In this document: positions 1,201 to 62,883 of the stretch, one piece after another | Layout: the number at the start of each line of letters is the position of its first letter | Numbering within the stretch: the first letter of the stretch is position 1 | Assembly: GCA_964016885.1 (NCBI GenBank) | Contig: OZ024747.1 | Location: forward strand, 18,228,001-18,292,000 | Reading direction: 5' to 3' | From: Eledone cirrhosa | Taxonomy: Eukaryota | Length of the DNA: 64,000 nucleotides | Notes under the pieces: model-generated | Told to the model about the DNA's origin: nothing | Database searches by the model: none | What the model saw: only the letters and a program-made list of their open reading frames with translations | Made by a program: the position numbers and the translations under genes

Positions 1201-3129
1201 TTTTGCCACCTTGTCCGTGGGTCACTGCTGAGACATACTGCCCCGACAGGGGTGTAGAGCTTGCCCCCCTTTTCCCCTTGCTTTCATTATCCAATTATTT
1301 TTTATTATAAACATTATATAATTTAACTGAAATAAAATTTCTCATATCAGAGGGTAGTAATTATAGCATGAAGGATTTGGTCCATTTAAATAAAAGGGAG
1401 CTCCATAGTCAAAAGGTTAGGAATCACAAGAATCTGGTTCTACAATTACAACTGGTGCTTGTCAAAAATCAGCAGAGTTAATTGCCTGTAGTAAAGTTTG
1501 ACTAAACATACTTTACAGTAGAGTCAAAGATTTTACCACTTTCGTTTATTCCTTGAAATTTATTCAAGGATAACAGTGCTGCTAGACCAGTTGCTTTACT
1601 ACTGGTTTAATAATGTGTGCTAATCATTTTTTCTTTGTTGTTGTTTTTTTCTTTTTATTCTATATTTCTTGTAGTATGGATTGCCAAGGTTGACTTTCCA
1701 TCTGGTCTTCTCACTAGTGTCTTGCGAATGACTGATTTCCTCACTATGCAATAATAGTTTTGGTTTCTTTAAAAGATCATTGTTACATACATATTTCACT
1801 CTTGTCAGTTTTCTTCATGGTTATATTATATTCTCTGATAAAATCCAGGAGGAAAAGTGATTCATATGAATGGAAATTGAAGGTTTAAAAATGTTACTGA
1901 TTGCTTTTAATGTATTATTTTATCTATATTCTCAAGCAAACAACATTGATATTTTTAACATAGATATGTTTTTCTTAAAATATACATGTGAAAATGGAGA
2001 TAATAGAAATCTATGAAACCAGAAAACTGGTTAATATCTTGTCAGTGGCCCAATGTTCTTTGCCTGGACAACACACTTAACTCACAATAGCTCAATACAT
2101 TTAACTGTACACTCATTTACATTTGTTCACTCAACCACCCTATTCTAATTCACTGATTCACTCCCTCGCAGTCTTTCTCTTATCTCCTTTCTTACACTTG
2201 TTTGTTGATACACTTCTTTACACTTTTTATTGCTAAACCTCCTCCATACCACATTCACAGTGTTCTTTTTGTCTTTTATCACATAGTCAAAGAAGCAAGG
2301 GTGGTGCCTCTGAGCCTTTTCAGAGGCTCCATAACTAGTGTGCTGAAAAGATAAAGTAATCCTCAGACCAGAAACTTCGTTTGAATGCTTGCAATAGAGT
2401 GGTCTCTTCTAAAGTCACTCTTAGGTTCAAGGAGAGGTGTTAAACCAGGTGACAGATTAAGTTTAACTTCCACAGGTTTAACTCCAATCAGTTACTGGAA
2501 TCTTTTCTGTAGAGGTGTAAAAAGCAATATTCTATAGTCAGCTGTATCTAGTTTAGAGAACAGTGAACTCTTTTATTTCCGTTATGCACATGGGATATAT
2601 AAGCATGCCAAAAATTGAAAGAAACATTTTTCTCATTTCTGCAAACAAGCAATGTTTGATAATATGGTACTGGGTTCACTGCATGAAGGAAAAAAGACCA
2701 GAGGGTCATGGTTGGAACATCTTTGATCATAGGTCTAAGCAATAAGGTTTGACTTGGAATTAAAAGACAACCACAACTGCAATACCTAATCCGTGTATAA
2801 CAACTAAAGAACCTTTTTCTACTTCACTCTCCACACTCTCAGATTTGCTAGCTCACTCATTCATTCAAATTTGTTCACCTTTCAATCATTTCTTCACTCA
2901 TATTCATTTGCACGCTCTCACTCATTCATTCGCACTTATTAACTCACATTTGCTCCTCATACCCATTTCATTAAAATTCCTTGTAATAATCCATTTCCTT
3001 GAACTATAACATGCTAGAATTTCAGCCCTCGGCGTAATAACATGGTATGGAAACTTGTAAAGAGTGTTTGACTATTTATAGTTATTTAATTTACTGGTCA
3101 CTGCAAATTGTCAGCTGGTAATGGGAGAA

Positions 3130-3257
3130 TATGGGGTACTCTGTCAAAGAGCTAAGAACTTTTCTTGTAGTTGTCTTACTAAAAAGTGGGCATCTGTGGT
3201 GCTCTTCCCTGGCATGAAGCCAAATTGCATCTCATCTAATTTAACTCTTTCTCTATG
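3130..3257 (-). mobile_element. RTE RT fragment, downstream half of a host element split by the CRE insertion
   Basis: Minus strand reads RVKLDEMQFGFMPGKSTTDAHFLVRQLQEK, homologous to DLDEMQFGFVSGKSTTDALFVVRQLQEK in ORF 43585-43977. Confidence 0.8.
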
Positions 3258-5949
3258 TTTTTTTTTGTTTTTTTTTGTGTACATCCATTCACTCATTCAT
3301 TTACTGCCATTCTACCTTCCCGTGTCTCCCCCTCCATGCAGCTCCTTTTCGCTCTCGTTTTCTGGCACCTCCATATATATAGGTGAGTTATGCTGCCCTC
3401 TTACCAGCATTTTCCCTTCCACCCACACACACCAGCCACCCACCCCTGATGCCGCTCGGTGCCTCAGTTCCCGGCCCCATGCCCCATCCCCCACCCCTCC
3501 AAATCGACACCTGCAGCATTAACAAACGGAAAAGGGGCCGGAACTGTTTGGGGTGCGGCTGTTTCCACCACCTCACCTGCGTTGGTTTGACTCATCGAGC
3601 TTCCAATGCCCTCACAGCGTGGAGGTGCAGGAGCTGCCTCTTCCCCATGTCTTCCCAGCCACGGCCGTCTGGCACACCACCAGATGGGACAGCGAGCTTG
3701 CCTGACGCCCAAGCCTCGCTGGTCAACATCGCTCGGCTCAGGTGGCTCCGGAAGATCCCACTCAGGATCCCGAGAGTGGCACGGGTGCCGGTAGCCAATG
3801 CCCTCGCTTCCTCGATTTCGTCAAGGCCAATGTCTCGTCATTTGGGCGAGCGCCCATTCCAAGCGTCCCTAGGGACGCTACACACTCCACTCTCAGGTAC
3901 CCCCTATCCTCCACCCCCGAGGCCAGCGCCAAGCGTTTGTGTGACCAGGTAAACGCAAAGCTTATCATGGGTGATGTCTTGGCCGCAGTCAGAGTTGTTG
4001 CCTCAGAGGACACTGTCCTCCAACCCACCGAGGAGATCCTGGCTGCTCTGCGGCTCAAACACCCTGAGCCACCCACTGATCTCAGACCCATACCCCCCAC
4101 CTGCTCCTTGTGGCTACTGATGCAGATATCATGTCCGCCATAAGGTCCTTCCCAGCTAGTGTCAAGCTTGACATGAGGAATGCCTTTAACTCTTTACGCT
4201 GGGATCATCTGCTCGAGGCCTGCCTCAGCTGAGCCCCCTCTGCCTACCCGCTGGCCTACCTGTCATATGGAGCCCCGGGCATACTCCTAGCTGCTGATAC
4301 GGTCATACCCTTGGCTACTGGGGTTCAACAGGGCGACCCTTTGGGACCCCTCCTGTTTGCCCTTGGTATTGACCACATCGCCCGGAGTATCACGGCCCCT
4401 CTCAACGTTTGGTATCTGGATGATGCTACGTTGGGCGGGCCCGTACGGACGGTCTGCCAAGACTTCAATCGGTGATTCCTGCCCTGGCGGGAATCGGCCT
4501 CCAGGTCAACTCGGCCAAGTCAGAGGTGGTGAACGTCAGCCTCGATTTTGCGAGCTTTGCAGCCTCCGTCTTGGACGTGCGGTCGATTCTCCGCCAGGTT
4601 CAGGTGACCCCCAAAGAGGGGGTCACCTGAACCTGGCCATCCGCTCCACCATCAAGTCCAGGCTTCAACAGCTCCAGACTCTCACGAGCCGACTGGGCTT
4701 GATTGACAGCCACCCAGCTCTCTTTCCGCTGAGGAACTGCTTCGCCATGCTGAAGCTCCTCTATAGACTCCGCAGCGCTCCGTGCTACACCCAGACATCT
4801 CTCCTCACTGACCTCGATACTTGTATCCGAGCAGCAGCCGAGGGGATATGCAACGTCAAGTTTGACGACATAGGGTGGCAACAGGCCACTTTACCGGTCA
4901 GGTATGGCGGCCTAGGCCACTGGTCTCCGATCTCACTAGCTTTGCCGGCGTATCTTTTGTCGGTAACCTCGTGCCGCGTCCTCGTCAGCAGGGTTCTTCA
5001 AAACACAACAGAACCCTCTGTGTTCAGAGAACGTGAGGCCGTCTGTGAGACGTGGGACCGGCTGGGACTTAGCCCAGTAGACGTCCCTCCTCCTTCTCCC
5101 CTTGTTGACGTCAAGTCCCCCCAATGCACTTGGGATGCCATCCAGTGCAGCCTGGCCTCAAACAGGCTCACGCGCCAGCTCGACCAGCACCGCCTTGCTT
5201 GTTTTCGTGCGGCCTCCAAACCCCACAGTGGTGCTTGGCTCCATTCTCTGCCCTCCTTCTCCACTGGCACGCAGCTAGACAACCATAGCCTGCGAATCGG
5301 CGTTTCCCTGAGGTTCGGCCTCCGGATCTGCCAGCCACACCAATGTCGCTGCGGTTCCACTCCACCCGCTTTCCTGTCGCCACAGTGCCAGCCGCATTCC
5401 ATGCTGCCCTCAACGAGGTCATTAAGCATGGCTTGGACGCTGCAGGCTTCCCTTCCCAGCTCGAGCCGGTGAGGCTGGATCGAGGGGACGGCAAAAGGCC
5501 AGATAGCATGACCATCTTCCCGTTCCGCGGTGGCAAACCCCTCGTCTGGGATGCCACTTGCACCGACACAACCTGGTGCAGTCTGCGACTGACCCAGGTT
5601 CTGCTGCACGTCGGGCTGAGGGGGCCAAACTCCTCAAATACCGGTCGCTCTACGACAGGTTTGCGGTCGTTCCCCTGGCAGTGGAAACTTCTGGTGTCAT
5701 CGGCCCCAGGGCTACCTCCTTACTCACCACCATAGGCGCTGAGCTGGCCAGCCGCAGGTGTGAGCCCCGCGAGTTGGAGTGGCTTTTCCAGCGCGTCTCC
5801 CTTGCCGTCCTCCGGGGAAACGCCTTCTCTATTCTGTCCGCCAGGGCTGTGGGTGGGCCCCATCGCGTACCAATACATTAGTTAAATACCATTCTTTCAT
5901 CTGATACAACACAATAAAATTCGAACATAAAAAAAAAAAAAAAAAAAAA
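3258..5949 (+). mobile_element. CRE-like non-LTR retrotransposon (PHD-like finger, RT, restriction-like endonuclease), frameshifted and internally deleted
   Basis: Cys/His cluster CLGCGCFHHLTC...WRCRSC. RT motifs KLDMRNAFN (~4165), GVQQGDPLGPLLF (~4320) and WYLDD (~4410). RLE motifs [31 protein letters not shown] and FQRVSLAVLRGNA. Stop at 5881, AATAAA ~5913, poly(A) 5928-5949. GC-rich relative to flanks. Confidence 0.9.
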
Positions 5950-6851: not shown

Positions 6852-7638
<787 letters not shown>

Positions 7639-7745
7639 ACCAATGAAAGTTGGAAAATCACTGATGAAGGACTAATTTTATTCATATGTAACCCATGTGC
7701 AACCACGCAGCACTCAATTCTTCTCATATTTATATATATATATAT

Positions 7746-7951
7746 AACGAAGGAAGTGTGGTAAGGAACCAGGTGGACCATAACGCGCCAGAGTACTCAA
7801 TACTTAGGGTAGTAGAGTGGGTAATAGGAAAATGTTCAAGATCCCGACGGCAGAGCTCAAGCAGTTTCGACGGCTATTTCTTGATTGCCTGTCCAGAAAT
7901 AACCGTCGAAACGGCTTGGGCTCTGGCGTCGTGGTCTTGAACATTTTCCTA
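7746..7951 (-). mobile_element. Fold-back element family A, copy 1
   Basis: Imperfect hairpin at 7825-7951 plus ~80-nt tail. Homologous to 31969-32208, 33014-33213 and 57391-57582. (TA)n on both sides. Confidence 0.85.
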
Positions 7952-8032
7952 TATATATATATTGTATACACTCTACTAATGTATTGAGTACTTTACTTCC
8001 TGTGGTTACGCCCGATTGAACCCAGGACTCAC

Positions 8033-8195
8033 ATAAAGAGTCGGGACCTCGACGACTGAGCTCTTGCCGTTTAAGCAGCTAGTTCTTAGCTCAGTCGTCG
8101 GCGTCCTGACTCTTTATAATATAACCATACTCTACTACTCCAAGTATCGAGTACTCGTTGAGTACTGGTCTAACCAGTTTCAAACTGATTCCATC

Positions 8196-8200
<5 letters not shown>
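8033..8200 (+). mobile_element. Fold-back element family A, diverged copy 2
   Basis: Arms ataaagagtcgggacctcgacgactgagct and agctcagtcgtcggcgtcctgactctttat. Tail contains ACTC-TAC...GTA-TC-GAGT. Confidence 0.65.
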
Positions 8201-8276
<76 letters not shown>

Positions 8277-8385
8277 GTTATTCCGGGTTGAATCGGAGGT
8301 AACCACAGTAAGTAAGGTACTCAATACATAGCAGAGTATAAAAGTTTTAATATATTTTCATCTATATTAAAACTATATATATATA

Positions 8386-8645
8386 TGTAGATAAATCTAC
8401 CAAAAGTTTACGGTAGTGTCCAATCCGTATGAAGAACTCAATGTAATCCGGATATCATGGAAAGAAGAGATGCATTCAAAAATCACTTTCGGTGAAAGAC
8501 AAACGGAATACAGAGTCAAGATAAAATATTAAAAAAATAATGAATAAAACAATGAAACAGTTCCTTATATTAAACAGTTCCTTATATTAAACTTTTTTTG
8601 TTTAATATAAGGAACTGTTTCATTGTTTTATTCATTATTTTTTTA

Positions 8646-8652
<7 letters not shown>
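8386..8652 (-). mobile_element. Fold-back element family G, copy 1
   Basis: Near-identical inverted copy at 53142-53362. ~50-bp inverted arms at 8522-8575 and 8600-8653. (TA)n flanks. Confidence 0.8.
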
Positions 8653-8730
<78 letters not shown>

Positions 8731-8736
8731 GGCTTC

Positions 8737-8760
8737 CTGATGATTTCGCCCGAATGAAAC
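8737..8760 (+). ncRNA. Minimal hammerhead core in TA-flanked element family F (8729-8865)
   Basis: CTGATGA-T-TTC-GCCC-GAA-T-GAAAC. Homologous to 34298-34321 (-). Tail homologous to 7965-8030 and 8277-8340 (-). Confidence 0.65.
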
Positions 8761-11140
8761 AGTTCTAGTCCTGTAGAAGCCATTTCTATACTAAATATTT
8801 ATACTCTGCTATGTATTGCGTACTTTACTTACTATGGTTACCACCGATTGAACCCGGGATAAACATATATATATATACACACACACAAACATATGTTTCT
8901 CTATTTTTACGGTTTTGTCTCATTTTCTGCTTCTGTCTGTCTAGTATTTCTCTCTCTCTCTCTCTCTATTTCACTTTCATTCTCTCTCTTTACTAGTTTT
9001 TTTTATCTATCTCTACTACGTATTTTATCTGTCTTTCTGTCACCCACTCTGTTTTCACTGTTCTGACATAAAACAGGTGTTGTTCATTAAATCCACTGTG
9101 GCCTCATGAATTAATCTTATATAATTAGACCCTGGTTATTATTATTATTATTATTCATTTATTCGGTGTAATTTCATGGTGTAATATTTAGCCGCAGATG
9201 CAGTGTAATGTTGCCTACATAAATTGTCATGTTATGATAAATTGTTGTAATAGAACCTTGACTAATGTTATCATAATAGTTTTATAGTATAGGTAACTCC
9301 CTTAACTCACTTAGTTGGAAAAGGATAGCAGAAAGGGGAGTCACTATTTTAAGCTATATATAATAATAATTATGCATAGTATTCACATTAAGTCAGTATA
9401 TTAATATAAATAATATTTTGTGTGTGTGTGTGTATGTGTTTTTATTTATCTTGATGGTGTTGATTGAGCAATCCTAGATCAAAGACATTCCATCTATGAC
9501 TGTCAAGACTTTTTCCAGACATAGTGTACCTTGGATAACATTATACTGAGTGTCCATTAAAAAAAAAAGATGGTTGCATGTAATTTGAGAAGGATTTGGC
9601 TGCTATTTCTAGTAGGTTATACGAACAGTTGGGGACTACTTAATTGGCTCATAGATGCAAATGGGAGGTTTTAAAAACATCAGTTTAATCTAATGAAATT
9701 CTTATGTCGGTGGTTTTTAACCTTTTTAGCTCCATGCCCCACCACAAAACCCCGAAAGAAATTGATACTTCCCCCTCAATATAAAAACATGTTTTGATGT
9801 TAAAAAGCTATAATATAAAATTTAGTAATTTACCAAAAAGAAAAATGTTTAATCAATAATACTGCTTTAAATATACATATTGAAATGAAATTCTTTTCTT
9901 AAATGTTGAGTTTTGAAATTGCCTCCTTAAAATATTCAAATTGCTTCTCTGTTGGGTATATGCTTCACATTCATAATCACTAACATACACCATCAGTGAT
10001 GCAGTATTTCCTGTACTGGCTGTACTCTATCTGCTGTTAGCTACACTCTGACATGTGTGTTGAGAGAGTGTCTTCACTCTGATCACTGTGCAACAGTTCT
10101 GGTTGTTTTAAACAAAACTGTTCATCCTATTCGCCCAGTAAGTTGACAAACTATCAAACTTGTGAGAGGATTTTAACTCAATAAAACTTGTAATTAGAAT
10201 TATTAATGTATCTATTGAGTTCATAGTCAAATATATGTATATTGTATTGAACTTGTAACACCCAATTAAAACAATATATATTGAAAACATAATGAAATAA
10301 AATGTATAGTTCACTCCTCCATAGGTTTAGCTGGCCTCCTATGAGGTGGCACTTTGTGGAAGGTTTCTCAAGTGTCTTAATGAAAAGGTCCTATCATGAA
10401 AAGTAATGTGAAATTAAGTATCTTACTCAAGAACACAATGTGCTACCTTTGTCTATGAATTGAACTCACGACTTTATGATCATGAGTCCAATACTCTAAG
10501 TACTAAGCAAAGTAACTTTACCAAACAAGACGTAGAGAACTTACTAATACACATATACGACTGTAGTTTAAGTTAGTCTAGGCCTAATGAGGTACAAATA
10601 TGTGTGTAGTTACACAGGCAAAAAGGGAGTAGCATGAGGTCTCTTGGAAAGGTGGTACAAAATATCACATGAATAGGTGGTAGGGGTGAAGAAACCAATA
10701 CAAATAGGTAAGAAATCACCACAGGAGACACTCTATTGTCCCTTTTGATACCACATCACTTGAAACTACCTTGCAACTATGATACAAAACTGCTCATTTT
10801 AAAATGTTTATCATGACTCATACACTGTTCATTTTCCTGACAATTGTACATTATTCTATGTCTTATACATGCACCTTTGATGAGTTGTATTGCACCTGAG
10901 AGCTGTACACAATAATTTCATTATATATATCCTGATATTAAATCCTGCTATCAGGTGATGTTCTAAATATCAGTTTACTAATGAAAAACTTTATTTTATT
11001 AAATTCTTCCAAATATTTGATTATTTTTTAAATGAATTGAAACACATAGGGAGTGTATTCTATCAAAATAGGGTAATGAAAGGGGTTAAACAAGCAAGAG
11101 GATTTTTACTCAGTAATACAAACTAATGAAACATTTTTCT

Positions 11141-29710: not shown

Positions 29711-29793
29711 GTTCAGATTCTTTTCCTTCTATTTCAAGTGTTAAACTAATATATATCATCATTGTACACTGTCATTCAAGATAATTATTTTGT

Positions 29794-29843
29794 CTGACGA
29801 ATGAGTTAGATGTTTCTGTAAGAATCATCTAGTTTCTCGAAAC
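29794..29843 (+). ncRNA. Hammerhead core with extended stem II (family E, intact form; element to ~29951)
   Basis: CTGACGA-..GAG.TAGATG.TTCT gta AGAA.CATCTA..CTC-GAAAC. The downstream ~110 nt are homologous to 55084-55195. Confidence 0.7.
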
Positions 29844-29989
29844 CTTCGGTAATGGAATAATTATATTGTATTGTTTATTATGTAATTAAATAGCTCTGTA
29901 CTATACATAGAGCACTCTTCTTTTCTTTACCTTTTCTATGGAAATACTTAACACACACACTCATATATATATATATATATATATATATC

Positions 29990-31920: not shown

Positions 31921-31968
<48 letters not shown>

Positions 31969-31972
<4 letters not shown>

Positions 31973-32208
31973 AACAAGTAAGACCCCGACGGCTGAGCTC
32001 AAGCCGTTTCGGCGGCTAATTCTGGACTGAATGAAAATTAATTGAAAATTTATGAATAAATTTTCATTCAGTCCAGAATTAGCCGTCGAAACGGCTTGAG
32101 CTCAGCCGTCGGGGTCTTACTTGTTCCTATTACCCACTCTACTACCCTAAGTATTGAGTACTTTGGTGCGTTATCGTCCACCTGGTTCCTTACCACATTT
32201 CCTTCGTT
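31969..32208 (+). mobile_element. Fold-back element family A, copy 3
   Basis: Arms 31969-32039 and 32059-32129 (one mismatch), GAAAC in the right arm, ~80-nt tail, (TA)n on both sides. Confidence 0.9.
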
Positions 32209-32466
32209 ATATATATATATATATATTCATCATCATCATCTATATATATAATCATCATTTACGTCCGTCCCTTTACGATCTGAGTTCAAATCCCGCCAAG
32301 GTTAACTTTGCCTTTCATCCTTACGAGGTCGATAAAATAAAGTACCAGTAATGTACTGGGTAATTGCTGGCCTTGTGCCGAAAGTGGAAACAATTATTTA
32401 ACATTGGTTTTCTCTATTAGCCATCACATTCCAAACCAGTAATTAATCTCCAACCTCGGAACTCCC

Positions 32467-32532
<66 letters not shown>

Positions 32533-32775
32533 ACCCACAAAACTCTTGACTGATCAATAGATAAGATAGGTCCTCATACTTTATTTAAGATTCATTTGAT
32601 AAACTAATATATACGTGCCTACAGTCTCCCAAAGTATTTTTAGGTTATCTCACAAGACATATTCTTCTTAAGTGCCTATAAATAGCTACTTTGGTATATT
32701 TAAGGCCAGATGCGCACACATTGTGTGTATGTGTACATGAGAGTGTGCATATATATATATATATATATATAGGTA

Positions 32776-32814
<39 letters not shown>

Positions 32815-32861
32815 GTATGTGTGTGTGTGTGTATATATATAAAGATATATATATATAGGTA

Positions 32862-32909
<48 letters not shown>

Positions 32910-32911
32910 TA

Positions 32912-32943
<32 letters not shown>

Positions 32944-32978
32944 GGTATGTGTGTGTGTGTGTGTGTGTTCCCCATATT

Positions 32979-33013
<35 letters not shown>

Positions 33014-33017
<4 letters not shown>

Positions 33018-33211
33018 AACCAGTAAGACCCCGACAGCTGAGCTCAAGCCGTTTCGACGGCTAATTCTGGACTAAGTCCAGAATTAGCCGTCGAAACGGC
33101 TTGAGCTCAGCTGTCGGGGTCTTACTGGTTCCTATTACCCACTCTACTACCTCAAGTATTGAGTACTTTGGTGCGTTATGGTCCACCTGGTTCCTTACCA
33201 CATTTCCTTCG

Positions 33212-33213
<2 letters not shown>
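33014..33213 (+). mobile_element. Fold-back element family A, copy 4
   Basis: Perfect 60-bp arms 33014-33073 and 33075-33134 with a 1-nt spacer. Tail to 33213. (TA)n on both sides. Confidence 0.9.
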
Positions 33214-34278: not shown

Positions 34279-34297
34279 AGTATACAGGACTAGAACT

Positions 34298-34321
34298 GTT
34301 TCATTCGCATGAAATCATCAG
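34298..34321 (-). ncRNA. Minimal hammerhead core, family F (inverted-repeat element 34283-34460)
   Basis: Minus strand CTGATGA-TTTC-ATGC-GAAT-GAAAC-AGTTCTAGTCCTGTA. The plus strand repeats GAATGAAACAGTTCTAGTCCTGTA at ~34334-34357. Confidence 0.65.
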
Positions 34322-34470
34322 ATGGTTTAATATGAATGAAACAGTTCTAGTCCTGTAGAAGTCATTTCTATATAAAATAAAAAATGCTTATACTCTACCA
34401 ATATACTGAGTTCCTTTTTTTTTATCTGTGGTTAATCCCCCCCCCCAACCCAGCTTGTAAATCTACATAT

Positions 34471-36444: not shown

Positions 36445-37389
36445 ATGAAAAATTGAACAGGGACAGAACAGAGAGGCAGTACGATAAATGTTTATTAAAT
36501 TCACGCTCAGGAGAGTGGGGGGTAGGTGGAGGACGACGTTTCGGGCATAAGCCCTTCTTCAGGTGAGAGTTCAAAAGGTGTGTAGGGGAGTGGTGGAGAG
36601 ACATATAGCGAAAGGAAACGGTGCGAATGAAAAATTAACAAATAAAGACAAAAATATAATAAATAAAAATAAAGCATGATCAAAATACAAGGAATGAGAA
36701 CATTTAAAAATAAAGGCATGATCAAAATAAACTGAAATTAAAAGGGGGGTAAACAGGTGGTGGAAGGGTGTGGGGTGAGTAGAGGTGGTGGCGGGTGGAG
36801 TGGGGAGAGGGAGACGGGGTGTCCGAGCGGGGAGGGCTGAGGTGGTGTGTGTGGTTAGGTGTGCGTGTGTGTGTGTGTGTGTGTATGTGAAAGTGAGGGT
36901 TGGAGGAAGAACGGGGTTGCATGTTCAGGAAGGTGTGTGTGGGGGTTGTTTTTGTGTGTCGGAGTGTCTGTGCGTGTGTGGATAGGGGGGTGGGGGGAGA
37001 GGAATCAGGGGGCTGAGGGTGTAAATATGTGGTGGGAAGCACGTGTGTGTGGTTTAAGCGTGTTGTGGGTGTGGGTGGCGTGTGGATAAAAAAAATTGTT
37101 TTGGGATGTGTGTGTGGGTGAGTTATATAGGTGATGGTGTAAGACGATGGTTGAAAGTGGTAAGTTACACGGATGTATGGAGATTTTGGTTGGAAGTCAA
37201 AACGCGTGTGGGTAATCCAAGAAGCGGTGGTCGGAAGAGGAGAGATGTGGGGTGCGCGCGCAACAGGAAGTGGTCAACAGTGGAAGTGCTGTGGTCAGTT
37301 GGTGCTGAGACAGTGGTCGGAAGGGCATAGCAGCAGTCAGCGGAATGGTAGGGAGGCGAGGATGGGTAGGTGTGAGAGTTGGAGTGAGG

Positions 37390-37420
<31 letters not shown>

Positions 37421-39304
37421 ATTAGTAGGGGTGTTAGTGGGATGAGTGAGTGTGGAGTGGGGAGAGAAGGGGGTGTGTGGTTCTATGGAGGGAGTGTGGT
37501 GTACTGGTGTGTGTGTAGTTTGGTGAGGAGGTGTTAGTGGGTGTTAGTAGACGGGAGGTGGGGGTGGTGGAATGCAGGTGTGAGTGGGGGTTAGTGGGGG
37601 TAGGGTGTGTAGAGTTGGTGGTGTACGAGGGTGTGTGGGTACGTGTGCGTGGGGTTGGAGGGTGTTAGTGATGTTAGTTGCGTGTGGGGTGGGTGGTGTA
37701 AGTGTGTGCGTGTGATAAGGAGGGGGGAGGAGGAGAAGAGGGGAGGGAAGGGATGTTAGTATGTTAGTTGGGGAAGGGTGGTCAGATGAGGGGTGGAGTG
37801 GAGTGGAGGTGTTAGTATTGTTAGTGTGGGGTGGGCGGTGAAAAGGAGGGGTGTGTTAGTGGTGTTAGTGGGGGATAAGTGGGGGAGGGGGGCGGTCGAA
37901 CGCTAAAGGAATAAGGGTGGGGAGTTCAGGCCGGGGGGAGTGTGGGTCTGTAAGAGGAAGATAGTACGTTGTTCGACCGTGAGGCGATGGGCGGGTGTTC
38001 CGTGGCACTGGAGTAGGCCACAGACTGTGAGATGGCGTGCGGAGTGTCCAGGGCCACCAAAGTGGCGGGCGATGGGGAAACTGCCCCCGAGACGAATGTC
38101 CCGGAGGTGCTCCGTGACTCGGTCCGCCAGGCGACGTCCCGTCTGTCCGACATAAGTCGCGCTGCACCTCGTGCAACGAAGTCCGTAGACTAGGTTGGAG
38201 GAGGTGCAGCGGAAGGCATGCCGGACTGAGAGAGGGTGGCCGTTGGGACCCTGGAAGGTGGTTGTGTTGGTGATGTGGGGACAGGTGTTGCAGCGGGGCC
38301 TAGTAGGGAGCTGTGGACGAGGAGGGTGCGGAGATTGCGTGCGCGTTTGAAGGAGGGGAGTGGTGGGGTTGGGAAGATGTGGGAGGTGGGGGGGTCGGAC
38401 TGGAGGTGTCGGAAGAGGTGGCGGATGGTGCGGTGGAGGGGTAAGGTGGAGGGGTGGTAGGTGATGGGGAAGGGGAGACGGTGGGTGGGTGTGCGGTGGC
38501 GTGGGGTGAGGGTGGTGGAGCGGGGGATAGCACGGGCGCGGGTGAGAGCGGTGTGGACGAGAGAGGGGGGGTAACCTCTGCAGATGAAATGGCTGACTAG
38601 GGAAAGGGCCTGGGACTCGAAGTCAGCATCTCGGCTACAGAGGCGGCGGATCCTGAGAAGTTGGGAGTAGGGAATGGAGAGTTTAGTGTGGGTGGGGTGG
38701 GAAGAGGTGAAGTCGAGGTAAGAGTGGGAGTCGGTGGGTTTGAAGAAGGCGGAGGTGACGAGGGAGTGGTGGGAGGGGCCGAAGGCGACGGAGATGTCCA
38801 AGAAGTGGACGTGGGTGGTGAAGTGGAGGGAGGGGTGGAAGGAGCAGAAGAAGGAGAGAAAGGAGGCGAGCTGTACTCGGGTGAGGGTCGTGGCTCCGAT
38901 ACAGTCGTCAATGTAACGACCGTACAGTTCGGGCGTGGGGCCGGTGTACTAGGCAAAGATTTGGGCCTCAACATGGCCAACAAAAAGGTTGGCATAGTTC
39001 GGGCCCATTCTTGTGCCCATGGCTACCCCCGTGACCTGTTGGTAAAACTCACCCGAGAAGGAGAAACAATTTAGGGTGAGGACCAGCTCGGCGAGGCGAA
39101 GGAGGGTGGGGGTGGAGGGAATGGGGGAGGGGCGAAGGTCGAGGTAGTGTTTGAGGGCGCGAAGGCCGTCCGCGTGGGGGATGACGGTATAGAGGGACTT
39201 GATGTCTAGGGTGAAGAGGAATGGCTGAGGGCCGGGTAGGTAGGTGAAGGAGTCGAAAAGGCGCAGGGTGTGGTTGGTGTCAGAGATGTGGGAGGGGAGG
39301 GTGG
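36445..39304 (-). mobile_element. Penelope-like element (GIY-YIG-bearing, Neptune-like), 5'-truncated
   Basis: RT motifs: [76 protein letters not shown]. Endonuclease: CTSSNLVYGLRCTRCSATYVGQTGRRLADRVTEH..PIARHF..E..I..LQTHTPPGLN (~37920-38220). Long C/A-rich 3' region and a hammerhead core. Both ends abut TA arrays. In-frame stops/frameshifts are present. Confidence 0.92.
36538..36562 (-). ncRNA. Minimal hammerhead core in the Penelope pLTR
   Basis: Minus strand CTGAAGA-A-GGGC-TTAT-GCCC-GAAAC-GTCGTC. Confidence 0.8.
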
Positions 39305-50739: not shown

Positions 50740-50817
50740 TAGGGTGTTCCAAAAAAATGTATACATACTCTGATCAGAATGCTGTTGAAGTGTGTATACA
50801 TTTTTTGGGACACCCTG
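50740..50817. mobile_element. Tiny Tc1/mariner-like MITE
   Basis: ~29-bp TIRs agggtgttccaaaaaaatgtatacatact and agtgtgtatacattttttgggacaccctg. Confidence 0.7.
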
Positions 50818-53421: not shown

Positions 53422-54679
53422 CACACACACATGTATGCTTACAGTCATACTAGGAATGGTTGTCATCAACCTAAATTGTATTTATTGGTATAGTGTAGTT
53501 TCCCATATTCTCATGGTCTTAGGACAAAGGAAAAATGTTCCCATTCCTTGAGGAAATACTTAGTCCAAAATAGCGGAAACTCTTCTCCCAATAACTTACA
53601 CTTTACTAACACACACATACATACTGATATATATATATATATATATCATCATTATCATCATCATCGTTTAATGTTCCACTCTAGCATGGGTTAGACGGTT
53701 TAGTTCCACTTGATGCGGGATTGGTTGGGAGACCATGTCTTGCTCGTACAGAACTGTTCCTGGCAGGTTTTCTATGGCTGGATGCCTTTCCTAACACCAA
53801 CCACATTTACAGTGTGGACTGGGAGCCTTTTTACTGTCTCCTACACTCCTATATATGAAAGCACAAGGAAAAAGTACTCAATACATAGAATTAATAATAA
53901 TGGTTTCTGATTTAGGCACAAGGCCAACAATTTGGGGGAAGTGGAAAGTCGATTAAATTGACCCTAGTGTATAACTAGTAGTCTGTTTTATCAACCCTGT
54001 AAGGATAAAAGGCAAAGCTAACCTTAGCAGAATTTGAGCTCAGAATGTAAAGAGCCATATCTCACATATATATATATATGAATTTACATATATTCATATA
54101 TATATATCTGTGTGTGTGTGTGTTTTTGTGTATTGTCAATGAAAAGATATATCCAGAGCCTCTATTCCAAAGTTTCAGTAATTAGATTTCAGAAGTTGAA
54201 ATCCCCAGATATATCCTACTTAAAAATAAATGTTATTGGAAATGTTATAAAAACCACTAAAGAGGTCAAACACCCCCGAAACAATCAAGTTCATGAGTTT
54301 AGTTCAGTACATATTACTTATATATGTCTTATATTCTTTATATTAATCTTTGTCAAATAAGTTTAACTAATTTCTACACTGTTTTCATTTTACAAAGTCA
54401 CAAGAGTGATCATTTGGTTATTTATTAGCTCTCCTTCTCCCCACCTCTTTAATCTCTCTTCTTAGAACTTATAACCATTTCCTTATGTGTGTGTGTGTAT
54501 ATACACACACATATATATATATATAAGCAAAAGGGATATTTAATTTGTTGGTAATTCAACAAATATAAATGTTTATAACTGATTCGAAGCACTCGACAAG
54601 TTTTCTGGAGTATAATATTCAATGATATTAAATAAATTTAAACTATATTTATAAAACCATATTTATTCTATCCAGGATA

Positions 54680-54996: not shown

Positions 54997-55195
54997 ATTA
55001 TGTAATAAACAACACAACATAATTATTCCATTACTCAAGGTTTCACGAATTCAGACGCTTCTCTTAGAATCGTCTGACTTCGTGAAACCTTGAGTAATGG
55101 AATAATTATGTTGTGTTGTTTATTACATAATTAAATAGCTGTGTACTATACATAGAGCACTCTCCTTTCCTTTACCTTTTCCACAGAAATACTTA
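54997..55195 (+). mobile_element. Fold-back form of hammerhead family E
   Basis: Perfect 53-bp arms 54997-55049 and 55079-55131 around an imperfect stem II homologous to 29801-29838. GAAAC at 55084. No CTGANGA. Confidence 0.85.
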
Positions 55196-56509: not shown

Positions 56510-56537
56510 CTGATGAAGGACTAGCGTCTGAAATGTT
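56510..56537 (+). ncRNA. Minimal hammerhead core (CpG-decayed)
   Basis: CTGATGA-A-GGAC-TAGC-GTCT-GAAATGTT, consistent with an ancestral GTCC-GAAACGTT. Confidence 0.6.
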
Positions 56538-57390: not shown

Positions 57391-57582
57391 ATATGAAAAG
57401 ATTCAGCACCCCAACGGCTGAGCTCCGGCTGTTCGACAGCTAGTTCGGATCTAGCTGTCGAAACGGACGGAGCTCAGCCGTCGGGGTCCTGAATCTTTTC
57501 ATATTACCCACTCTATTACCGCAAGTATCAAATACTCTTGTGCATTATGGTCCACCTGGTACCTTACCACGCTCTCTTTGTT
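57391..57582 (+). mobile_element. Fold-back element family A, copy 5 (diverged)
   Basis: Hairpin 57391-57504 with inner gacagctag-ttcggat-ctagctgtc-GAAAC. Family A tail. TA flanks. Confidence 0.85.
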
Positions 57583-62744: not shown

Positions 62745-62793
62745 CTCTCTGCTCTCTCAGTTCAAATTTCACTATTTTGATGTATATATATAT

Positions 62794-62831
<38 letters not shown>

Positions 62832-62883
62832 GATATATATATATACATCAAAATAGTGAAATTTGAACTGAGAGAGCAGAGAG
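62745..62883. repeat. Local inverted duplication around an (ATC)n spacer
   Basis: ctctctgctctctcagttcaaatttcactattttgatg(ta)n-tca is mirrored after (atc)n. Confidence 0.9.

Follow-up and report, generated by a model that had tools for sequence, protein, structure and literature searches.

Family A consists of five hairpins, each of which most likely represents the terminal 150 bases of a Penelope-like retrotransposon (PLE), present twice, head-to-head, in TA repeats and cut short inside the hammerhead ribozyme. That the sequence represents a PLE end is, taken alone, a rather secure assignment. With less assurance, but still as the reading we favour, each copy would be one insertion of a PLE 3' end in which two cDNAs, primed from opposite strands, were joined at helix II of the ribozyme. 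An inverted layout is already known for PLEs, and copies so small and numerous could help to explain how it comes about; the insertions described here appear to consist solely of two truncated PLE ends, and their parent has a hammerhead with a variant core.

Five hairpins with a one-sided tail

The window is the whole 64-kb stretch of DNA that was analysed, and all coordinates are relative to it. It is AT-rich, (TA)n and (TACA)n tracts being numerous alongside LINE fragments and short repeats, a make-up that indicates an animal genome and would suit a cephalopod; ~10% of the window lies in or beside (TA)4+ runs. Within this window family A comprises five copies (c1–c5), each a hairpin with a one-sided tail and each at the place given by the initial annotation of this DNA. 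An HMM of the right arm plus tail recovers the five copies together with their inverted arms, and detected no sixth copy in the window (next match E=1.3). The tails are 78 nt long in four copies and 83 nt long in c2. The copies had been described as lying next to or between (TA)n, and nine of their ten ends indeed adjoin TA runs; the exception is the left end of c2, which adjoins the 3' end of a family E tail. Target-site duplications are unreadable in TA runs.

In c3, the inverted tail-less arm (31968..32039, minus strand) is the reverse complement of the right arm with 1 mismatch over these outer 72 positions, and its outer end is the counterpart of the short 3' end at 32130. It is followed by a 19-nt junction (32040..32058) made of repeated, stuttered partial copies of the adjacent TGAAAATT, resembling a templated insertion, and by what is left of hammerhead loop II and of the 3' strand of helix II (32057..32087, plus strand); the loose ends of public sequencing runs before 32054-32058 supply the matching 5' strand of helix II together with the core TTGANAA. 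The hammerhead 3' half (32088..32114, plus strand) has GAAAC at 32088-92, helix III at 32091-32109 with a GAGCTC palindrome in its loop, a predicted cleavage site after C32110 and GGGG, the 3' strand of helix I, at 32111-14. The 78-nt one-sided tail (32131..32208, plus strand) lies between the short and long 3' ends and carries a stem-loop motif at 32136-32164. Copy c4 (33013..33213, plus strand) has its inverted arm at 33013-33073, a 1-nt centre, its right arm at 33075-33135 with GAAAC at 33093-97, and its tail at 33136-33213. Copy c1 (7746..7952, minus strand) has GAAAC at 7868-7864 and its tail at 7823-7746. Copy c5 (57391..57582, plus strand) belongs to the other subfamily and has a helix II junction with a sense-strand loop, GAAAC at 57460-64 and a tail at 57505-57582. 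The most diverged copy is c2 (8033..8200, plus strand), whose right arm lacks the GAAAC segment; the gap has AGCT on either side.

Arm identity within a copy is 61/61 in c4, 77/81 in c3, 51/56 in c5, 55/64 in c1 and 30/39 in c2, and between copies it ranges from 23/43 to 59/62. Alignment columns follow the locus in 97 cases, the side in none and run crosswise in one (10 locus pairs, mutually non-independent), and the co-varying bases quoted in the initial annotation are present, in agreement with its view that the arms are alike within a copy and unlike between copies. Its expectation that trees of left and right arms would pair by locus was borne out for c1, c2 and c4, whose two arms are sisters, while the positions of c3 and c5 were not resolved by the tree. 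Such locus-wise pairing fits fresh synthesis and palindromic subfamily masters alike, and it does not by itself decide the mechanism.

Because its arms are identical, c4 is taken to be the youngest copy, and the spread of arm identity across c1–c5 suggests insertions of different ages. Folded as a hairpin, c4 has z = -22, with 0/200 shuffles as stable. The centre is distinct in every copy, with lengths of 1 nt in c4, 7 nt in c5 and 19 nt in c3, as had been noted for the loops. Copies c3 and c4 are alike at 77/80 tail and 59/61 arm positions, yet their centres are unrelated; the junction was therefore probably made per insertion, and a centre that differs with each insertion is what had been claimed. 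The window copies are probably inert relics. We also observed that the tails of c1 and c3/c4 are identical at 75-76/80 positions, whereas their ribozyme-bearing arms are only ~73% identical; across subfamilies, conservation is thus much stronger in the tail than in the hammerhead region.

Hammerhead remnants, an un-inverted parent and two 3' ends

Behind the inner stem, the right arm consists of GAAAC, GGCT, a loop with the GAGCTC palindrome, AGCC, GTC and GGGG. This series corresponds to the 3' part of a type I hammerhead, in which the core is accompanied by 6 bp of helix III, by GUC as cleavage triplet and by one strand of helix I. The initial annotation had recognised GAAAC directly behind the inner stem in four copies as half of a hammerhead core; it is present in 4/5 copies, having been lost in c2, and helix III, the triplet and the helix I strand extend that reading. 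A C>T change in c4 keeps helix III through a G-U pair. The 3'-half pattern taken alone is unspecific, 60/833 GAAA sites passing a similar test. As had also been noted, CTGANGA is absent from the copies (0 of 37 window sites fall inside one), and no hammerhead 5' half of the parent type was found in the window at up to 3 mismatches. TTGAAAA at 32042 in c3 fits the core pattern, but it is part of the junction duplication and was rejected as a core. None of the Rfam matches listed (150 of 325) is a hammerhead, and the Rfam matches on the hairpins (MIR810, MIR8706, WsnRNA46) were set aside as far below the gathering score. Small folds (helix III alone, tails alone) are no more stable than shuffles. 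The window copies are unable to fold a hammerhead core; an un-inverted parent has, by sequence, the needed parts.

Public sequencing runs were compared with positions 32040-32208 of c3 (loop, right arm and tail), using X1, X5, X6 and X11 of 13 listed. No RNA library is among the runs listed, which carries no information on expression. The aligned material comprised 17686 X1 contigs, 23572 X11 reads, 2 X5 contigs and 11 X6 contigs; results on loose ends are from 19 of 373 rows and those on variants from 40 of 147 rows. With a depth of ~2, the two X5 contigs may be contaminants; chimeras are possible in X11, which is a RAD library, and summed contig depth is not read as copy number.

At least seven X1 contigs (agreement 0.99) have, before 32054, CCC, TTGATAA and GTT followed by CGGCTATTT, and at least one X6 contig, from another labelled organism, has C, TTGAGAA and GAT followed by the same CGGCTATTT. 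At least 12 further X1 contigs (agreement 0.6) have CGGCTATTT and the loop in common, their consensus lacking the core. The helix II 3' strand, in the version with the common A allele at 32079 (35% of X1 depth, and found in c1), is complementary to this 9-nt segment. The letters before it are unlike the left arm, and these contigs are therefore not palindromic copies. The core TTGANAA is a U3-A8 swap of the C3-G8 core pair and is kept in the two labelled organisms, which differ at the free position N7; behind it the helix II strand of the parent has a bulge and leads into a loop II of ~31 nt. We conclude that an un-inverted parent with core TTGANAA exists and has what reads as a complete hammerhead, in which the pairing of the 5' and 3' halves, including that of CCC with the GGGG behind the cleavage site, was read by eye. 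The U3-A8 core variant is reported in Schistosoma PLEs (PMC4209133) and has been described as active (PMC3088659).

A parent of this kind had been predicted by the initial annotation. The un-inverted form does exist in the public runs, with TTGANAA and not the expected CTGANGA as its core, and the proposed search for CTGANGA-GACGGC would have failed because of this core, the bulged helix II strand and the ~31-nt loop II. For the same family, descriptors requiring CTGANGA miss the parent, and the hairpins score weakly as miRNA precursors and look like MITEs, which bears on how such DNA is annotated. The c3 junction letters differ from the native upstream letters in the runs. Among the variants listed, the alleles that separate c3 from c4 are 32107 C>T (20% of X1 depth, 13% of X11 reads) and 32122 T>G (35% of X1 depth, 15% of X11 reads); being common genome-wide, they would come from the source elements and not from mutation followed by arm conversion. 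X11 read ends at 32059 and 32077 were rejected as truncations, as these are AATT sites and the ends are restriction ends, and 32066 is probably a variant AATT site. In at least one X1 contig an end seems to be joined in tandem to the body of an element, and a tandem source elsewhere may exist.

(TA)n directly follows position 32130 in 3915/23572 X11 reads, 134/17686 X1 contigs and 1/11 X6 contigs, so that this short 3' end, 78 nt before the long end (~32208), is joined to (TA)n in 3/4 runs compared. The other subfamily has the same short end (loose ends behind 32116, among those listed), and the site is fixed in two subfamilies and two labelled organisms. By analogy, a fixed short end followed by (TA)n at some distance before a long end is the 'tail' signature of PLEs, although the 78 nt of family A lie outside the 30-40 nt published for described PLEs. 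The tail stem-loop ends in GTATTGAGTACT(C/T)T and is common to families A, E and F. For a degenerate form of this motif, drawn from these elements, the window has 10 occurrences where 0.98 would be expected, and 8/10 are in the three families. When family A and E tails were aligned, the best pair beat 500/500 shuffles and another 490/500, and a third pair gave no alignment. An isolated exact tail motif lies at 53871-53888 (minus strand), inside or beside another repeat family.

Members of families E and F with intact ribozymes are present in the same window. Family F has an intact type I hammerhead with a 13-bp helix I and a long helix II at 29781-29955 (plus strand; F29794), and a palindromic sibling at 54997-55195 (plus strand; F54997) that is 85% alike, keeps the native helix II and the same tail motif and has lost the 5' core. 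Family E is represented by a copy at 8728-8862 (plus strand) with an intact hammerhead at 8737 and a 6-bp helix I, by a head-to-head copy at 34283-34460 (plus strand; E34283) and by tail-only fragments at 7960-8032 (plus strand) and 8278-8342 (minus strand).

Origin of the second arm

We propose that the source of family A is the extreme 3' end (pseudo-LTR, pLTR) of a hammerhead-bearing, (TA)n-targeting Penelope-like retroelement; both the enzyme and the order of the steps that follow are ones we infer. A GIY-YIG endonuclease would nick both strands of a TA run, and uncleaved RNA would be reverse-transcribed from both nicks, beginning at two fixed start sites 78 nt apart. The long start would give the arm with the tail, and the short start the tail-less arm. 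Both cDNAs would halt within ~60-150 nt, in most cases where the ribozyme has its long helix II/loop II, and their 3' ends would be joined head-to-head by helix II annealing or microhomology repair. With one source RNA for both, the arms would match, and the copies would differ because their sources belong to different subfamilies. Since the family A copies run 25-50 nt upstream of the cleavage site, an uncleaved RNA template would be needed. In the Poseidon element PAc of the lizard Anolis, synthesis proceeds from nicks in both strands of AT-rich DNA, the tail is set by a pair of RT start sites and the template is uncleaved RNA (Frangieh et al. 2024, PMC11167929), although PAc belongs to a different clade and has a shorter tail.

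The junctions cluster in helix II/loop II: c1, c3 and c4 are joined inside loop II, and c2, c5 and F54997 have sense-strand loops closed by helix II. Of the 12 joints listed from the public runs, 11 are opposite-strand, with offsets of 36-89 nt, and none is symmetric; in 6/11 of these listed joints one piece lies wholly within the tail. In two listed joints the 'side' is exactly as long as the stretch to 32130, which would make the tail-less arm the one that reaches further 5'. Five joints end at 32107-32127, in or close to a segment with many indels at which alignments tend to be interrupted. In E34283, CTGATGA is found on the tail-less arm only. In several junctions, then, the tail-less arm holds sequence that is absent from the tail arm, an observation more in keeping with two separate priming events whose products were joined at helix II. 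Arm asymmetry can also be obtained by later deletion in a palindrome, and c2 looks like such a case.

More tentatively, helix II of PLE hammerheads could possibly serve as a built-in stop and splint, halting the two opposite-strand cDNAs and annealing their 3' ends. If true, the ribozyme fold, and not cleavage, would create inverted pLTRs; the pattern occurs in three unlike families (A, E and F) of one window, and thousands of genomic copies would record it.

A doubtful alternative keeps the same PLE origin and derives both arms from one cDNA, which would fold back via helix II or a sub-hairpin of loop II, prime itself and be captured at the first TAT of the TA target (32130). Self-priming from palindromes at inverted PLE junctions has been proposed (Arkhipova 2013, PMC3846280), and the loops of c2 and c5 fit it, as does F54997, whose arms pair perfectly over their outer 53 bp and have their two mismatches in helix II, one of them at the native mismatch position of F29794. 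For these three elements the same product would be expected if two cDNA ends annealed through helix II. However, a copy cannot hold what its template lacks, and E34283 and the asymmetric joints do so; c1, c3 and c4 are joined inside loop II, where the 1-nt centre of c4 is too tight for a hairpin primer; and the short end is a fixed site across subfamilies and organisms. Synthesis of the left arm by fold-back at stem II, as the initial annotation had it, is thus only partly supported for family A: helix II is involved and c2, c5 and F54997 fit, whereas c1, c3, c4 and the asymmetric joints do not, and the parallel it drew with family E breaks down at E34283. Twin priming and fold-back may both operate. 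A very abundant family of two-end insertions would offer thousands of natural junctions of graded age on which the two routes could be compared.

We consider it improbable that the hairpin plus tail is a non-autonomous element of which a few palindromic masters are transcribed and re-inserted whole, with arms pairing by subfamily. The centres of c2 and c5 begin alike (GCT-AGTTC), copy density is high at 5 in 64 kb and un-inverted parents are rare among the loose ends listed, all of which such masters would explain; against them, c3 and c4 are 96-97% alike with unrelated centres, there are at least 11 different inverted joints, and a perfect hairpin of 60-80 bp would be expected to serve poorly as a template for RT. 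A DNA element (MITE or Helitron/Replitron-like) with TA insertion and long inverted repeats homogenised by gene conversion is very unlikely despite its long inverted repeats, its TA flanks and co-varying arms of a kind known in MITE subfamilies too, as the 78-83 nt tail lies outside the repeat, which is not terminal on the right, the variable centre is not the fixed interior of a classic MITE or TIR transposon (a type the initial annotation had rightly set aside), old copies keep arm mismatches (9/64, 5/56 and 9/39), so that gene conversion is not efficient, and the existence of an un-inverted form with a complete hammerhead largely refutes it.

Relation to known elements and other repeats of the window

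Returning to the favoured reading of two joined PLE ends, family A, as a putative PLE insertion, has every PLE trait that we tested: a type I hammerhead near the 3' end (3' half in 4/5 copies, variant-core 5' half in two organisms, with pairing by eye), an inverted 5'-truncated copy adjoining the 5' end (5/5 copies), the optional one-sided tail from two fixed 3' ends and a TA target. PLEs are already known to carry inverted 5'-truncated copies and one-sided tails and to favour (TA)n (PMC8557442), and the formation of tandem and inverted PLE ends and the role of the hammerhead are called unresolved by Craig 2021 (PMC8557442) and Frangieh 2024 (PMC11167929). A motif scan of the window (RWK, DKT, CxCX5C, no CCHH) found no piece of a Hydra-type ORF, and the 30 upstream letters read from the public runs contain nothing that connects family A with an RT/endonuclease ORF.

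The source PLE probably belongs to the Hydra clade, or is a non-coding derivative mobilised by a Hydra-clade PLE. Like family A, Hydra PLEs target (TA)n and have a hammerhead of type I, located some 100-200 nt before the 3' end; in one family a 5'-truncated inverted copy is attached (PMC8557442). As a lead, a similar 3' stem-loop, recognised by text search and eye and not by alignment, is present in 3/6 consensuses new in that paper, with tail-motif variants at the termini of Hydra-2_Amil, Hydra-1_Ajap and Hydra-2_Ajap; two other 10-letter motif matches fall inside non-Hydra sequences of its supplement, and that supplement contained no exact family A motif. A Hydra family is listed there from Octopus bimaculoides, and the published Octopus Hydra consensus lacks the tail motif and ends ~35 nt after the ribozyme. 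Unlike the Hydra PLEs described, family A has no ORF in its copies, its parent core is TTGANAA in contrast to CTGANGA in all listed Hydra ribozymes, and its helix III has 6 bp compared with 3-4 bp; the ~31-nt loop II and the 78-nt tail are also unlike (PMC8557442).

Head-to-head inverted pLTRs, one of them tailed, and junction palindromes are also known from Penelope elements of Adineta vaga (Arkhipova et al. 2013, PMC3846280). There, the inverted pLTRs flank ORFs or captured DNA in low-copy elements, whereas in family A the whole insertion would be two truncated ends and the junction maps to helix II of the ribozyme. The minimal hammerheads of PLEs (Cervera and de la Pena 2014, PMC4209133) resemble family A in occurring as dispersed single motifs of truncated PLEs with a long helix II and a palindromic loop III, and opposite-strand motif pairs spaced by 100-700 bp are described. 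The motifs reported there are complete and almost without helix III, whereas family A has lost the 5' half in nearly all copies and has a 6-bp helix III. Non-LTR retrozymes (bioRxiv 10.64898/2026.07.22.740005) are similarly non-coding, carry a type I hammerhead and are related to PLE pLTRs; they are head-to-tail tandems of complete ribozymes, in contrast to the head-to-head, broken family A, and we rejected them as an identity for the window copies, all five of which are single, inverted and without a 5' core.

ORF-less head-to-head stubs joined in helix II of a hammerhead were not reported in the literature searched, which lies outside most subscription papers, Repbase and Dfam. The text and supplement of a paper on Octopus vulgaris repeats (PMC13282606), as far as accessible, make no mention of a hammerhead, hairpin or palindrome; family A may already be in the Octopus vulgaris repeat library, or in Repbase or Dfam, under another label. 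Tail and arm patterns gave 0 matches in viral contigs, metagenomes and prokaryote genomes. A looser ribozyme plus tail pattern gave 12 viral loci, which we attribute to chance, since 0/12 have an upstream core, TA runs or RT motifs.

The window also contains a broken GC-rich PLE (36445-39300, minus strand) with a stop codon, a frameshift and a truncated 5' end, located between TA-type repeats. It has RT and GIY-YIG motifs, with weak Pfam matches below cut-off for both at 37900-39300 (minus strand), and a minimal hammerhead at 36562; its cysteine-rich linker presumably resembles that of Neptune. The 3' end of this element is unrelated to family A, 189/500 shuffles scoring as well, and a 14/18 match between it and the family A tail was rejected as not significant. 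A nest of at least five PLE-end pieces surrounds TA runs at 7345-8900, together with inverted repeats at 7345-7589 and 8521-8654. Hammerhead-like cores near TA runs at 56510 (plus strand), 62993 (minus strand) and 35585 (plus strand) pass a loose descriptor, and 7661 (plus strand), near a TA run, has CTGATGA only. Palindromes unrelated to family A lie at 62745-62883, centred on a (CAT)n run, at 50741-50816 and at 4593-4637. Finally, GC-rich frameshifted ORF pieces at 3082-5881 (plus strand), two of which were tried and gave no Pfam match, resemble what we take to be a non-LTR retrotransposon with a restriction-like endonuclease.
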